Shown here: piece after piece, positions 38,164-64,000 of the stretch | Layout: the number at the start of each line of letters is the position of its first letter | How positions within the stretch are numbered: the first letter of the stretch is position 1 | NCBI GenBank assembly: GCA_963790475.1 | Contig: CAWBOS010000013.1 | Span: 416,001 to 480,000 of the forward strand | From: an uncultured delta proteobacterium | GTDB taxonomy: Bacteria; Desulfobacterota; RBG-13-43-22 | Direction of reading: 5' to 3' | Length of the DNA: 64,000 nt | Notes under the pieces: generated by a model | What the model saw: only the letters and a program-made list of their open reading frames with translations | Told to the model about the DNA's origin: nothing | The model's database searches: none | Made by a program: the position numbers and the translations under genes

Positions 38164-38691
38164 TTAAAAATGCAGATGATAAAGCCCCGGGAGGTGTCGA
38201 TATTGTTCATCAAAGTCCAACCCGTAACCGACAATAAATCCTTTGGGGATCGAAAACCCGCAATAATCGACAGTGATCGGGACTTCCCTCCGCTCGGTTT
38301 TGTCAATCAAGGCACAAATACGAACCGATTTGGGATTTTCTTTGTTCAGGAATTCTTGAAGGAACTTCAGGGTCAGCCCGCTGTCTACGATGTCTTCGAC
38401 CACCAGAATGTGTTTATCTCTGATCGGGAGTTCAATGGCTTTGGTAAAGCGAATTTTCCCCTGTCTTTTACTCTGGCTGCCGTAGCTGGCCAGACGGACA
38501 AAATCAAGTTTAACGGGGATGGAGAGATTTCTGGCCAGATCGGCCATGAACACAAAGGCCCCTTTCAAAACCCCGATCAGGATCAACTCCTCCTTTTCGT
38601 AATCTTTTGAAATAGAGCCGGCCAGTTCTTTGACCCTTTTCTGTATCTCTCTCTGGGAGTATAGCCGTTCTTTTTTGGCTGGAAATGGCAT
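38164..38691 (-). CDS. hpt: Hypoxanthine phosphoribosyltransferase
   Basis: GVLKGA..F, VVEDIVDSGLTL, FIVGYGLD. Confidence 0.96.
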   Translation of the reverse strand: MPFPAKKERLYSQREIQKRVKELAGSISKDYEKEELILIGVLKGAFVFMADLARNLSIPVKLDFVRLASYGSQSKRQGKIRFTKAIELPIRDKHILVVEDIVDSGLTLKFLQEFLNKENPKSVRICALIDKTERREVPITVDYCGFSIPKGFIVGYGLDFDEQYRHLPGLYHLHF

Positions 38692-38966: not shown

Positions 38967-39908
38967 ATGAATTCTTACGCCTTTTTGTTTCCCGGGCAGG
39001 CCTCCCAGTATGTTGGAATGGGAAAAGATATCCACGACTTGTATCCTTCGGCCCGGGAAATATTTGACAAAGCGGAAGACCTGACCGGAATGCCTTTGAG
39101 AAAATTATGTTTTGAAGGACCGATGGAAGATCTAACGCTGACCGCCAACTTACAACCGGCCGTAACCACAGTTAATCTGGCGGTTCTGGCCTGCCTGGAA
39201 GAAAAAGGGGTGAAACCGGGTTGGGTGGCCGGACACAGCCTGGGAGAATATTCGGCCCTATATGCCGCCGGGGTGCTTAGCCTGGAGGATACCTTAAGGC
39301 TGGTCAAGACCCGGGGGGCCTTAATGGATCAGGCGGCCCGGAAAAACCCCGGGGCAATGGCCGCGATTATGGGCCTGGCTCCTGAAACGTTGAAGAAAAT
39401 TCTTCTGGTACTGGGACAGGAAGGGGCCATTGGAGCCGCCAATTATAATACCCCGGACCAGACCGTCATCTCCGGAACAAAGGCACTGATAGACAAAGCC
39501 TCCCAACAAGTGACCCAGGCCGGCGGCAAGGCCGTTCCTCTGGCGGTCAGCGGGGCCTGGCACAGCCCTTTGATGGAGGAAGCCTTGGAAGGTTTTAAGA
39601 AAGTCCTTGCTTCCGTTCAATTTAATTCTCCAATCTGTTCCCTATTGTTAAATGTGACCGGAAAACCGGAAAATGACCCTTTGAAGATAAAAGAAATCAT
39701 GAGTCAACAAATCGGACAGTCGGTTCGTTGGACAGAAGTTATTAATAACCTGATGACCCAAGGGGTATCCCGTTTTGTCGAGGTGGGTCCCAAAAAAGTT
39801 TTGCTCGGTTTAGTGCGAAAATCCCTGCCCAAGGATTATCCTTATCAGGCCTATAATGTGGAAGACCTGAAATCCTTGGATGCTTTTTTAGCCGCCGAAA
39901 AAAATTAG
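38967..39908 (+). CDS. fabD: Malonyl-CoA:ACP transacylase
   Basis: FPGQASQ, GHSLGEY, VSGAWHS, EVGP. Confidence 0.95.
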   Translation: MNSYAFLFPGQASQYVGMGKDIHDLYPSAREIFDKAEDLTGMPLRKLCFEGPMEDLTLTANLQPAVTTVNLAVLACLEEKGVKPGWVAGHSLGEYSALYAAGVLSLEDTLRLVKTRGALMDQAARKNPGAMAAIMGLAPETLKKILLVLGQEGAIGAANYNTPDQTVISGTKALIDKASQQVTQAGGKAVPLAVSGAWHSPLMEEALEGFKKVLASVQFNSPICSLLLNVTGKPENDPLKIKEIMSQQIGQSVRWTEVINNLMTQGVSRFVEVGPKKVLLGLVRKSLPKDYPYQAYNVEDLKSLDAFLAAEKN

Positions 39909-40069
39909 ATAAGCGATAAAACGTTAGGTGTTTGAAAAGTTCTTGTTCACCGCAAAGCTTGCTATATTTTAGAAAGTAGTTAAGCCGTACAAAAAAGGCT
40001 ATACTCTTTCTTGATTTGAGGTCCAATTTGCAAGTTGGTTAAACCCAAACCAAGGAAAGGAGTATAGCC

Positions 40070-41329
40070 ATGAATAAGATTGAAACAAAAAAACTTAAGA
40101 AGGTCAATGAAAAAACCCTTATCGGTACCGTGGACATAGGCAAAACGACCAATATGGGATATGGCCGCTGTCCAGACCGGACGGAAATCAAACCTTTTGA
40201 GTTTTTCAATAATGATCAAGGATTTACGAAATTTTGGAATCGGATGGTTGAGGCCAAAGAGGCCAATCACTTGGAAGAAATCGTGGTTGGTTTTGAATCC
40301 ACCGGGTCTTATGGAGAACCCTTGCAACATTTTCTGATGAAACGGCCGGTGACACTGGTTCAGGTTAATCCTATGCATACGAAGAAGTTGAAGGAAGTCC
40401 AGGGTAACTCGCCCAATAAGACGGATAGGAAAGATCCCAAAGTCATTGCGGATATTATTGAGCTGGGTCATGCCCTTACCGTGGTCATTCCCGAAGGCGC
40501 GGCAGCTGAACTTCGCCGACTGACCCATGCCAGGGAGAGAGCCATACGAAGACGAACGGGCCTTTTGAACCAGATTCAGGATTTGGTCTTTATTGTCTTC
40601 CCCGAGTTTCTGCAAGTGATGAAGAATATTAAAACCCGCAGTGCCCAATATCTGTTGCGGCATTATCCGTGCCCGGAAGATATTATCCAATGTGGTCTTG
40701 GGACCTTGAGGGCCACGCTGAGACGGGTTAGCCGAGGGAAGCTGGATAAAGAGCGAGCCCCGGCCCTTTATGCGGCCGCTGGCCATTCCGTAGGTCTTCA
40801 AGAAGGCCGCAAGGCGATTCTTTTTGAGATACGAGAACTTCTTTCTGAGATTGAATCTTCTGACCAGTTTATTGAGAAGGCGGAACAGGAGATGGCGGCC
40901 CTTCTTCCCGAGATCCCCTATAGTCATTCGATTCTGTCCTTGAAAGGGATAGGAGAGGTTACCACCGCCGGACTGATTGGAGAAGTCGGGGATTTTCGTA
41001 AATTTCATACGCTGGCTGAAGTCCTGAAGTTGGCCGGACTGAACCTCTTTGAAATCAGTTCTGGAAGGCACCAAGGGAATCGTCATATATCCAAAAGAGG
41101 CCGGTCGCTTCTTAGGAAAATCCTCTTTTTTGCCGCTATCAATACGGTTCGAAAAGGGGGAGTGATGCATACGGCCTATCAAAGGCATCTGGATCAAGGA
41201 ATGCCCAAGATCAAGGCCCTGGTAGCCATTGCCCGGAAGCTTCTCGGTGTTATTTTTGCCTTGGTGCGTGATCATAACGAATATATGGAAAATTATTCAA
41301 AAGGAGCAACGTTAAAACTGGCTGCTTAG
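40070..41329 (+). CDS. IS110-family transposase/recombinase
   Basis: DEDD RuvC-like motifs (VDIGK, FESTG, KTDRKD), LKGIG HhH, SSG serine motif, ISKRG, VAIARKL. Confidence 0.95.
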   Translation: MNKIETKKLKKVNEKTLIGTVDIGKTTNMGYGRCPDRTEIKPFEFFNNDQGFTKFWNRMVEAKEANHLEEIVVGFESTGSYGEPLQHFLMKRPVTLVQVNPMHTKKLKEVQGNSPNKTDRKDPKVIADIIELGHALTVVIPEGAAAELRRLTHARERAIRRRTGLLNQIQDLVFIVFPEFLQVMKNIKTRSAQYLLRHYPCPEDIIQCGLGTLRATLRRVSRGKLDKERAPALYAAAGHSVGLQEGRKAILFEIRELLSEIESSDQFIEKAEQEMAALLPEIPYSHSILSLKGIGEVTTAGLIGEVGDFRKFHTLAEVLKLAGLNLFEISSGRHQGNRHISKRGRSLLRKILFFAAINTVRKGGVMHTAYQRHLDQGMPKIKALVAIARKLLGVIFALVRDHNEYMENYSKGATLKLAA

Positions 41330-41340
41330 ACCTTCTTAGC

Positions 41341-41485
41341 GTGTAAGCGGAGAGATTATCGTTTGCGGCATCTAAGGCGACTAAGTCGACCTTCTCGCAG
41401 AGCTTAAATAACTCTCCGCTTGCACCTTAACCCCAATAAAGCAAGGTTAGAGCTCTGTTGAGACTCTCAAATTACCAGAGTTGGG
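41341..41485 (+). ncRNA. Putative bridge/seek RNA of the IS110
   Basis: 14-bp stem 41341-54/41412-25 around an internal loop with CT/AG; second stem CCCAAT/GTTGGG enclosing AGCAAG and ACCAG, which match the element's two ends. Confidence 0.65.
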
Positions 41486-41813
41486 CAAGGTGTCACTCTA
41501 AGATAGTTACCAGTTTGTTTAATAATATTTAAAAAACTCTTGACAACAATAAACCAGACGCAAAGGACGCAGAGAGAATCATTTTTATTCAATCCCGTGA
41601 GAGGCGGGATTGAATAAACCTGCTCTGGCCTCCGGCAAATAAAAACCCGGAGGGTTGTGAAGCTTTTCGATTATCCCGCCAAGGCCAAGGCGGGAAATCG
41701 AAGTATTTCTTTGCGCTCTTTGCGCCTTTGCGGTGAAATCAGTCATTTCAAAAAGCTAAATTGATACGATAGCCGGAAATTCCGAAATCAGAAATAGATA
41801 GGGGATTTTTATT

Positions 41814-42017
41814 ATGACAAAAGTTATCTTCCAGGAAGAACGGTGCAAGGGGTGCGGACTGTGTGTCCTGGCCTGTCCAAAAAAAAATATAATTATCAGC
41901 GAAAAACTCAATAACCAGGGTTTTACCGTGGCCTCCATGACCGACGAAGAACGCTGTAATAGCTGCGCCCTTTGCGCTGAAATGTGCCCGGATGTGGTTA
42001 TTGAAGTCTGGAAATAG
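41814..42017 (+). CDS. 2x[4Fe-4S] ferredoxin subunit (delta) of 2-oxoacid oxidoreductase
   Basis: CKGCGLC..ACP and CNSCALCAEMCPD. Confidence 0.93.
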   Translation: MTKVIFQEERCKGCGLCVLACPKKNIIISEKLNNQGFTVASMTDEERCNSCALCAEMCPDVVIEVWK

Positions 42018-42022
42018 AATTT

Positions 42023-42098
42023 AGGCTGAAGGCTGAAGGTTGAAGGATTAAAAGAAAGCATTTTCTACTTTCAGCTATAAGCTATAAGCTATGAGCTA
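42023..42098. repeat. Heptamer cassette (AGGCTGA / AGCTATA) inside the oxidoreductase operon; related units at about 43190 and 43976-44008
   Basis: aggctga-aggctga-aggttga ... agctata-agctata-agctatg-agcta. Confidence 0.65.
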
Positions 42099-42113
42099 AT
42101 ATTAGGAGTTGTT

Positions 42114-43163
42114 ATGACAAAACCCAAAATGGAATTGGTGAATGGGAACGAGGCGATTGCCCGGGGGGCTTTAGCCGCCGGCTGCAAATTTTATTTCGGA
42201 TATCCCATTACCCCTCAAAATGAGATCCCCGAATATTTGTCCAAACATATGCCGGAGGTGGAGGGGACCTTTATTCAGGCCGAAAGTGAAATAGCCTCTA
42301 TCAATATGCTCCTGGGAGCCGGAGCTACCGGGGCCAGGGCCATGACCTCGTCTTCCAGTCCCGGAATTTCCTTAAAACAGGAAGGCATTTCTTATATGGC
42401 CGGGTGCGAGATTCCCGGAGTCATCGTCAACATGAGTCGCAGCGGCCCTGGATTAGGAGGCATTTCCCCATCTCAAGGGGATTATTTTCAGGCCACCCGG
42501 GGAGGAGGACACGGAGATTACCGGACTATCGTCCTGGCCCCTTTTTCCATCCAGGAAAATTATGATCTGACCATAACCGCCTTTGATCTGGCCGAAAAGT
42601 ATCGTAACCCGGTGATGGTTCTTGGAGATGCCCTGCTTGGCCAGATGAAGGAACCCATCCTCTTACGGCCCTACAAGCCCATGAAATTCGATAAGTCCTG
42701 GGCTTTGACCGGGGCCAAGGGGCGCAAACCCAGATTTTTAAAAAGCCTCTATTTGAACGAAGGGGACCTGACCCAACATAACTGGAAGTTATTCCAAAAA
42801 TATCAACAAATGAAGGCTGAAATTGCCTATGATACCTATCAAATTGAAGATGCCGATATGGTCGTGGTTTCGTTTGGGTCCGTGGCCCGGATCATCAAAT
42901 CTTCCATAAAGATGGCCCGGGATCAGGGGATGAAAATCGGGCTTTTTCGACCAATAACCTTATACCCTTATCCCGAAGACATGGTTAGGCAGCTATCCCA
43001 GAAAGTAAATCATTTTTTTGTGGTGGAATTAAATACCGGCCAGATGGTTGAGGACGTGAAGTTGTCGGTCGATAAAGGGGCCAGGGTGGATTTTTACGGC
43101 CGGCCTCCCGGCTCGATTCCCACCCCCAATGAACTGTTTGACGAGATCGGGAAGGTCTATTAG
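42114..43163 (+). CDS. 2-oxoacid:ferredoxin oxidoreductase alpha subunit (VorB-like)
   Basis: GNEAIA, GYPITPQNE, QAESE, TSSSSPG, R.GPGLG. Confidence 0.92.
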   Translation: MTKPKMELVNGNEAIARGALAAGCKFYFGYPITPQNEIPEYLSKHMPEVEGTFIQAESEIASINMLLGAGATGARAMTSSSSPGISLKQEGISYMAGCEIPGVIVNMSRSGPGLGGISPSQGDYFQATRGGGHGDYRTIVLAPFSIQENYDLTITAFDLAEKYRNPVMVLGDALLGQMKEPILLRPYKPMKFDKSWALTGAKGRKPRFLKSLYLNEGDLTQHNWKLFQKYQQMKAEIAYDTYQIEDADMVVVSFGSVARIIKSSIKMARDQGMKIGLFRPITLYPYPEDMVRQLSQKVNHFFVVELNTGQMVEDVKLSVDKGARVDFYGRPPGSIPTPNELFDEIGKVY

Positions 43164-63311: not shown

Positions 63312-64000
63312 TTATTGAACTACACCAGGCACATATTCCACCTGGTTCTTTAACACATAACGAATGCGGTTGAGCAGTTTCCGGGCGATCTTGATAATGG
63401 CCCTGGTTTTCTTCATCCGTTGGCAATATTCATTAAAGGCCAAAAGCAGGACCGGGTCCTTGCGGGCCGCCACCCAGGCGGCTTCGATGAGCAAAGCCCT
63501 TAATTGGGGGTTTCGCCGGTGGGTTAAGTTTTTTATATGTTCGGTCTCCCCACTGGATTCGACATCGGGGATTAATCCGACATAACTGGCCAACTTGTCG
63601 AGGGAGACAAAGCGGGCCAACTCACCCAGCTCGGTCAGGAAAATCATGGCCGCCAGGGTACTGATCCCCGGGATCGTTTTTAACAACCGGACCCTTTCGC
63701 GATATTCTGCTTCCCGGGCCAGCAAAATGATGGACCGGTTTAAAGAAGCGATGATCCGTTTCAGATGATGGAGTTCGTCTAAGTGGGCCTTGAGGGCCAT
63801 ATCGCCACTGGTCCGCTCCATACGAAGATTTTCGAGACAGCCAAGAAATTTTTGAGACCAATGGCGGTCAACAACTTCTTCGGGCAGAGTAATCCCATAG
63901 AAGTAAAGGAGCGCCTTAATTTGATTTTTACACCGGGTTTGCTTTCTCACCATACTTTGGCGGGTTCGAACCAGACTGCGATCCTCCAGCTTCGGACGGC
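63312..64000 (-). CDS. IS110-family transposase, 5' part outside the window
   Basis: TIPGI HhH, SYVGLIP..ESSG, LR..LIEAAW, IARKL. Confidence 0.92.
   Translation of the reverse strand, partial: RPKLEDRSLVRTRQSMVRKQTRCKNQIKALLYFYGITLPEEVVDRHWSQKFLGCLENLRMERTSGDMALKAHLDELHHLKRIIASLNRSIILLAREAEYRERVRLLKTIPGISTLAAMIFLTELGELARFVSLDKLASYVGLIPDVESSGETEHIKNLTHRRNPQLRALLIEAAWVAARKDPVLLLAFNEYCQRMKKTRAIIKIARKLLNRIRYVLKNQVEYVPGVVQ

Follow-up and report, generated by a model that had tools for sequence, protein, structure and literature searches.

An IS110-family insertion sequence with a predicted guide RNA downstream of its transposase gene in an uncultured delta proteobacterium

The 64,000-nt stretch of DNA analysed here (the window) comes from an uncultured delta proteobacterium of the Desulfobacterota (assembly GCA_963790475.1, contig CAWBOS010000013.1, positions 416,001 to 480,000 of the forward strand). 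Between its positions 39958 and 41555 lies an insertion sequence (IS) that is very probably an intact and recently active member of the IS110 family, moving by RNA-guided recombination. This reading is carried by the observed boundaries, target and copies of the element, by the domains of its transposase, by the structure of an RNA encoded after the gene, by the covariation of the first loop of this RNA with the DNA flanking each insertion, and by the constancy of its second loop together with the element ends.

The element is 1598 bp long and runs from CTTGC to AAACC with an AG core on each side. The whole sequence was matched at 10 places in its own genome (6.34 Mb, 20 contigs), with 1598 bp between identical ends at all ten. 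A single-nucleotide polymorphism (SNP) in one copy accounts for all sequence difference among them, and every copy contains a full-length open frame (428 codons stop to stop). The copies lie in ten different flanking contexts on five contigs. With ^ for the element boundary or insertion point, the left junction reads CACCGCAA-AG^CTTGC, the right junction reads AAACC^AG-ACGCAAAG, and the insertion site of the window copy can be written as CCGCAAAG^ACGCAAAG. All ten copies occupy sites of the type CCGCA(A/G)AG^ACGCA(A/G)AG: the left flanks are CACCGCAAAG (four copies), CACCGCAGAG (two copies) and one each of TACCGCAGAG, CACCGCGGAG, CACCACAAAG and ATACACAGAG, and the right flanks are AGACGCAAAG (nine copies) and AGACGCAGAG (one copy), all of the form AGACGCA[A/G]AG. 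The uninterrupted site CCGCA[AG]AGACGCA[AG]AG is found four times in the same genome, each time with a single AG, whereas AG stands on both sides of all ten copies; insertion thus leaves a shared core and no target duplication. Because ten copies have the same ends and four empty sites a single AG, the element can be set at 39958-41555 with the AG repeated at 39956-57 and 41556-57. An earlier note on this DNA, made without database searches, had placed the ends at AG-cttgc and aaacc-AG and had proposed a complete IS110-family element inserted at CGCA(A/G)AG^ACGC; the other copies, which it had named as the check, show the same ends and the same target. The element is complete, and its ten near-identical copies suggest recent activity.

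39948..39957, + strand: left target (CACCGCAA) and core AG (39956-57), the unit that comes first in the left arm of the palindromic host repeat; flank type seen at all ten copies and uninterrupted at four sites
39958..41555, + strand: insertion sequence proper, 1598 bp; ten copies of equal length with one SNP, ends kept in relatives
41556..41565, + strand: core AG (41556-57) and right target ACGCAAAG; AGACGCA[A/G]AG at all ten copies

The only long open reading frame (ORF) of the region encodes the transposase, its stop codon being located at 41327-29. The protein matches PF01548 (DEDD_Tnp_IS110; E 2.5e-24, 86 bits against a cut-off of 29), PF02371 (Transposase_20; E 5.7e-20, 72 bits against 21.3) and NF033542, 'IS110 family RNA-guided transposase' (216 bits against 140). 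Since all three exceed their cut-offs, the IS110 assignment made in the earlier note holds. The best relatives of solved structure were the recombinase chains of IS621 (E 4e-8) and ISCro4 (E 1e-5). Residues E76, D119, D122 and S331-G332 align with the E, D, D and SG of the IS621 chain, which we take to be catalytic; D22 is located outside the printed alignment.

40070..41329, + strand: transposase/recombinase gene, 419 amino acids, with D22, E76, D119, D122 and S330-S331-G332 by sequence position; PF01548, PF02371 and NF033542 matches, IS621/ISCro4 alignment

Among 8000 candidates scored, environmental data yielded 3967 relatives of the transposase at E up to 0.001. The best 120 share 69-93% identity with it, and the few with a named source are IS110 family transposases from Desulfobacterales or Deltaproteobacteria bins. 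Loci were fetched from a genome collection (43) and from metagenomes (80), together with six useful ones from the same bacterial family. In five genomes with two to seven copies each, the ends were found by copy-to-copy comparison, free of any motif; they read AG^CTTGCTAT(A/G)TT on the left and TTGACAnnAA(T/C)AAACC^AG on the right, with flanks specific to each genome. The left-end motif AG^CTTGCTATATT was present in 39 of 44 sources and the right-end motif TTGACAnnAAtAAACC^AG in 37 of 44, the missing ones mostly because the loci are cut by contig ends. The clade is widespread in sediment and soil genomes of the Desulfobacterota and Nitrospirota type.

In the 3' non-coding region immediately after the stop codon, all relatives have a common scaffold with two short variable stretches. 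The consensus of 22 representatives (RNAalifold) folds 41346-41493, about 150 nt, into two stem-loops, both built of an outer helix, a large internal loop and an inner hairpin. Folded as a single sequence, the 3' region reaches z = -4.8, and none of 200 shuffles folds as well. Over the 22 relatives, 98.3% of 844 cells are in standard pairs and 25 of the 39 consensus pairs show compensatory change. In 500 shuffles, neither the pairing, nor the number of compensatory pairs, nor the covariation score of the real alignment was reached, while further pair types were at least as numerous in 20 of them; sliding the partners by 1-3 columns lowered the pairing to 35-49%. The downstream fold described earlier, with its 14-bp stem, is thus more than a chance structure. 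The caveat that came with it, namely that the two strands of the first loop, CGTTTGCGGCATCT (41360-73) and CTCGCAGAGCTTAA (41394-41407), can also pair with each other, stands for the minimum-energy fold of the single sequence but does not extend to the family consensus, which leaves both strands open. A search of 39000-42500 against Rfam (E up to 1) gave no guide RNA match, only one chance match to a human long non-coding RNA model outside the element. From its loops and their order, 41346-41493 would represent a bridge/seek RNA with IS1111-type strand order.

41346..41420, + strand: predicted target-binding stem-loop, outer helix 41346-41359/41408-41420, inner hairpin 41374-93; consensus fold and pair counts
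41362..41369, + strand: right-target guide TTTGCGG+C; G41368 faces A41558, a mismatch
41396..41402, + strand: left-target guide CGCAG+AG
41422..41493, + strand: predicted donor-binding stem-loop, outer helix 41422-35/41481-93, inner hairpin 41450-66; contains AGCAAG (41440-45) and ACCAG (41474-78)

Loop strands were extracted via scaffold anchors from 109 of 124 sources; four mis-anchored ones (L049, L052, L070, L086) were dropped and the rest reduced to 97 distinct insertion events. In this set, drawn from about 120 relatives, element ends and second loop are constant while both strands of the first loop vary with the flanks. When the 22 representatives were compared, the 5' strand matched its own right flank at 4.90 of 7 positions and the flanks of other elements at 2.27, and the 3' strand matched its own left flank at 4.47 of 5 positions and others at 1.70; neither own value was reached in 20000 permutations. 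In a fixed register, the 5' strand of 84 events pairs with right-flank positions 1-7 in 67-86%, with the core G in 92%, with the core A in 26% and with position 8 in 14%. The lower right-flank pairing is explained in part by relatives that use a register shifted by one base. The 3' strand of 89 events has the same sense as the five left-flank bases and AG in 88-100%, and as the next base out, the eighth position, in 48%. As the left guide of the window copy, CGCAG+AG, likewise has the sense of the left flank and core, pairing with the bottom strand is possible.

The targets are often unrelated (e.g. GGGAGGG, GATTCAA, GGTCTGTGA and TATCAGGT) while coding sequence and scaffold remain alike. Among relatives with DNA available, the closest (L054, 88% amino acid identity) is a case in point: scaffold, left guide and left flank are as in the window copy, whereas four of eight positions of the right guide differ, giving TCTGTGT opposite a right flank ACACAGA. 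Elsewhere this relative has a few scattered changes, two of them compensated in helix 1. In a genome of the same genus the guide TTGAATC-CT accompanies the flank AG-GATTCAA at three of four copies and AG-GGTTCAA at the fourth. The loop strands thus change to match other targets, as the earlier reading of the first loop as the target reader had implied; of the 'partial matches' reported with it, one real mismatch in the right flank (G41368 against A41558) stands in the family register. In one Nitrospiraceae bin (L023-L026), the right guide is perfect at one of four sites (TATCAGGT) and has two mismatches at the other three (TAGAAGGT), a further instance of insertions at imperfectly matched sites.

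In the second loop, AGCAAG is the complement of the left-end CTTGCT, and ACCAG corresponds to ACC of the right end followed by AG. All 22 aligned relatives have both strings unchanged, and the ends do not vary either, in line with the proposed role of this loop as the reader of the element ends. Altogether, every sequence statement of the earlier note was found where the note had placed it.

Joining the two ends gives TTGACA (41540-45), 10+2+5 = 17 nt and TATATT (39963-68), which confirms the junction promoter of the earlier note as a sequence. It is kept in relatives: among 77 distinct junctions the -35 hexamer is TTGACA in 56 and TTGACT in 19, and the -10 hexamer is TATATT in 65 and TATAAT in five. 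A promoter role is argued from the position of the hexamers, which are not among the few bases that the second loop reads. A simple scan of the linear element detected nothing sigma-70-like on the + strand; two promoter-like sites on the - strand are within shuffle expectation. Basal expression would thus depend on read-through, for which the same-strand ORF ending at 39908 is a possible source; for IS621, basal expression by read-through is described (PMC13626964).

41540..41545, + strand: TTGACA, putative -35 half of the junction promoter, with an A-rich tract before it; 56 of 77 junctions
39963..39968, + strand: TATATT, putative -10 half, a promoter only once the ends are joined in a circle; 65 of 77 junctions

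In the proposed cycle, the element would be excised as a circle in which the right and left ends, joined via the shared AG core, form a sigma-70-type promoter. Transcription from this promoter would cover a short leader, the gene of the 419-amino-acid DEDD/Ser recombinase and the 3' guide RNA, whose second, donor loop would read the joined ends. The recombinase would then exchange strands at the AG core, leaving the inserted element flanked by AG on both sides and no true duplication. The circle, the activity of the promoter, the co-transcription and processing of the RNA, its binding by the protein and the chemistry of strand exchange are inferred by analogy from IS621, ISEc11 and ISEc21 (PMC11208160, PMC11187229, PMC13626964).

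The earlier note saw no obvious subterminal inverted repeats. This stands insofar as the best terminal inverted match of the window copy, with 8 matches, is no better than shuffles (mean 7.6), but a short imperfect repeat does exist: 39963-72 (TATATTTTAG) agrees at 7 of 10 positions with the complement of 41544-53. It takes the form TATATTnnAG against the right-end complement, occurs at the same offset in several relatives and shows one paired G/C change in the L039-41 lineage. A similar short signal, ATA/TAT, was described around IS110 donors by Durrant et al.

The left end of the element comprises 112 bp and has no guide-like loops. It contains a box, GGCTATACTC (39997-40009), whose complement covers the ribosome-binding site and runs on to the ATG (40057-40069). 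The box is invariant in 15 of 15 aligned relatives with no compensatory change, so that its pairing with the ribosome-binding site is only inferred. A leader hairpin of this kind could possibly act as a translational brake.

39997..40069, + strand: leader box GGCTATACTC and complement at the ribosome-binding site (inverted repeat I12); kept in 15 of 15 relatives, pairing putative

The insertion in a repeat arm noted earlier was likewise recovered: the element has inserted into the left arm of a palindromic repeat of the host, which is about 205 bp long and is matched 57 times in the genome. Nine of the ten insertion sites are located in one arm of this repeat; at the tenth (L010) the surroundings are unrelated and the half-sites are the same. 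The preference for a site within one repeat arm means that many sites are on offer in the genome. Folded as single-stranded DNA, an uninterrupted copy forms one long hairpin that encloses three inner ones (z = -8.6).

41556..41759, strand not assigned: remainder of the host palindromic repeat (~205 bp) with the element in its left arm; 57 genome matches, uninterrupted copy z = -8.6

In the window the repeat consists of 39924-39957 and 41556-41759, and an uninterrupted copy is found at L136:30-250. Its outer arms are CGCA(A/G)AG units spaced by 8-9 nt around the three inner hairpins, and Rfam gave no match to it. Relatives in other bins insert beside the same TTCACCGCAGAG motif, and the repeat family therefore seems widespread. 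The two half-sites are also alike in many relatives (L013, L021, L032, L044, L054, L085, L096, L115), as direct 8-9-nt repeats such as CACGAAG/AACACGAAG and, in L085, as a palindrome. Such elements seem to be specialists of short host repeats that are periodic or palindromic.

Several points weigh against reading the element as an active, RNA-guided one. The genome was binned from a metagenome, and its record lists 9.68% contamination; the contigs of four sequencing runs contained neither a circle joint nor an empty allele of the window locus. In one soil metatranscriptome, contigs that differ at 5 to 11 positions extend over 41339-41575 and include almost nothing of the gene; they stem from relatives, and we take them as no evidence, since contigs cannot show transcription and DNA may have been carried over. 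The relatives are phylogenetically related, hence the permutation tests overstate independence, and in the fixed register every one of right-flank positions 1-7 has a mismatch in 12 to 28 of the 84 events. For the second loop there is constancy and no covariation, because the ends never vary, and the junction ends were located with fuzzy patterns that themselves contain the promoter hexamers. Finally, the first right-flank position is A in all ten insertions, opposite guide G41368, while the 21 sites that match both guides perfectly (CGCA[AG]AG-C-CGCAAA) are all empty.

The 50 uninterrupted sites of the form CGCRRAG-N-CGCRRA have C (24), G (15), T (7) or A (4) at N. C would pair with the guide base, and the 21 perfectly matching sites are among these 24. 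None of the 46 non-A look-alikes is occupied (Fisher p 1.3e-8; p 2.6e-7 with only the eight occupied sites that fit the same left pattern). A relative with the same right flank as the window copy (L063) has U at the guide position of G41368. No second related guide RNA that might act in trans was found in the genome: the scaffold is present only in the 10 copies, and seven other pattern hits have no AG. The other IS110-family genes of the genome are of different lineages. Neither a one-base shift as in L060/L079-type guides, nor the 5' strand on the left half-site, nor a target bulge fits the family pattern for the window copy. We consider it possible, though doubtful, that the base beside the core is discriminated by something other than Watson-Crick pairing with the guide. 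Perfect sites may be used and efficiently re-excised, so that copies gather at slightly mismatched 'sink' sites; a non-canonical G-A contact may be read, or a register with a bulge (UCU with AGA, a suggestion of the earlier note); or the protein itself may read this base. In another genome seven copies stand at perfectly matching sites, so build-up at mismatched sites is not a general rule. If real, the contrast of occupied mismatched and empty perfect sites would offer a genomic handle on the balance of insertion versus excision, so far studied only for IS621.

Two explanations would do without an active, guided element. The 3' structure might merely stabilise or terminate the transcript while the protein alone picks the site, the matches of loops and flanks being by-products of insertion into repeats. 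In the window copy short matches do arise easily, given the repetitive target, and the two loop strands do pair mutually in the single-sequence fold; yet the strands follow the flanks over 97 events with many unrelated targets and are unpaired in the consensus, and the scan found no T-run terminator after the structure on the + strand, which makes this account very improbable. Hardly more credible is a reading of the copies as inactive remnants or as an artefact created when the assembly collapsed a repeat. Consensus polishing can make repeats identical in a metagenome bin such as this one, but ten flanking contexts on five contigs, the full-length open frames, the copy-specific SNP and the empty paralogous sites speak for separate, intact copies, and an independent run contains 96% of the sampled element words.

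An RNA-guided element could also be filed differently, by the same mechanism, as a member of the IS1111 group with decayed subterminal inverted repeats instead of an IS110-type lineage with a downstream guide. Siddiquee et al. (PMC11187229) describe a top-strand match 5' of the bottom-strand match and a downstream RNA as IS1111-type traits, and the window element has this layout, with the guide RNA after the stop codon and the top-strand match first; the short imperfect repeat at the same offset in several relatives, with its paired change, points the same way. The upstream guide in the left end with the bottom-strand match first, typical of IS110 in the narrow sense (IS621, ISEc21, IS110), is absent from the element. 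However, the subterminal inverted repeats of 7-17 bp of the IS1111 group are also absent from the window copy, where the terminal repeat is at shuffle level, and the protein has 419 amino acids compared with 330-350 in IS1111-type transposases (PMC11187229). A plasmid hit annotated as ISEc32 family, like unnamed IS110-family hits from enterobacterial plasmids, aligns to residues 265-409 only (the last 145 residues), whereas the full-length matches are ISBth13-like and IS110-like proteins of 25-28% identity. Some IS110-type elements with a downstream non-coding region are on record in the same paper, and the combination of traits seen here is therefore not unheard of. We regard the IS1111 filing as unlikely. 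A Lachnospira relative (35.6% identity) has a similar left-end motif and no recognisable scaffold, and was set aside. The combination of an IS1111-like RNA layout, an IS110-like protein length and near-absent terminal repeats bears on the relation of the two groups.

The RNA-guided mechanism has been known since 2024, and the element is a clear further example of it, not a new mechanism. Its protein is already named by NCBIfam; only the guide RNA would go unannotated. In the literature on IS110/IS1111 bridge RNA and seekRNA we found no paper that names this clade; a 2026 preprint (10.64898/2026.10.21.760802) clustered 181,180 IS110-adjacent intergenic sequences and may well contain the clade. 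Recombinases with bridge or seek RNAs are under development as programmable tools for genome rearrangement, and the studied examples are a few enterobacterial elements. The clade described here offers a compact downstream guide of about 150 nt, a longer recombinase and fixed donor ends, and a 7+1 / 5+2 guide code can be read from its roughly one hundred natural retargeting events.

The genes around the element look like housekeeping genes by their translations: an acyltransferase-like ORF with GHSLGE (38967-39908, + strand), a phosphoribosyltransferase-like ORF (38164-38691, - strand), and, at 41814-43163 on the + strand, a small ferredoxin-like ORF with a larger ORF after it. A second, unrelated IS110-family transposase gene runs off the end of the window at 63339-64000 on the - strand (NF033542 198.6 bits, 381-codon open frame, two genome copies), and a third IS110-family lineage of 401 codons is present in three copies elsewhere in the genome.

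Among known systems, IS621 and ISCro4 (PMC11208160, PMC11208158, PMC13626964) share with the window element a recombinase that has both Pfam domains and is of DEDD/Ser type (in the window element by sequence), a single RNA whose internal loops bind target and donor (predicted here), a core dinucleotide that target and donor have in common and that flanks the inserted element on either side, a promoter across the circle junction (predicted here from the joined ends) and insertion into palindromic repeats of the host. In contrast to them, the RNA of the window element follows the gene instead of preceding it, the core is AG in the sense of the gene and not CT as in IS621, and the protein is about 90 residues longer, with a sequence match of only E 4e-8. 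The seekRNA elements ISEc11, ISKpn4 and ISPa11 (IS1111 type; PMC11187229) likewise have a guide from the downstream non-coding region, the top-strand match 5' of the bottom-strand match, a junction promoter (predicted for the window element) and no site duplication; they differ by clear subterminal inverted repeats and transposases of 330-350 amino acids, compared with a weak 7/10 repeat and 419 amino acids here.

ISPpu9 and ISPpu10 of Pseudomonas putida (PMC12288879) also belong to the IS110 family, reside in repetitive extragenic palindromes and recombine at an invariant AG. ISPpu9 has its guide upstream; it has a strong native promoter and no useful junction promoter, whereas the window element has its guide downstream and, by scan, no internal promoter. 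ISBth13, the closest element with an ISfinder-type name that was found, has a transposase of 27.5% identity over 92% of the query. In its copy on a Bacillus thuringiensis plasmid, which shows none of the end or scaffold motifs of the window family, the long non-coding stretch is upstream, with 437 bp before the gene compared with 122 bp after it, the reverse of the arrangement in the window element.

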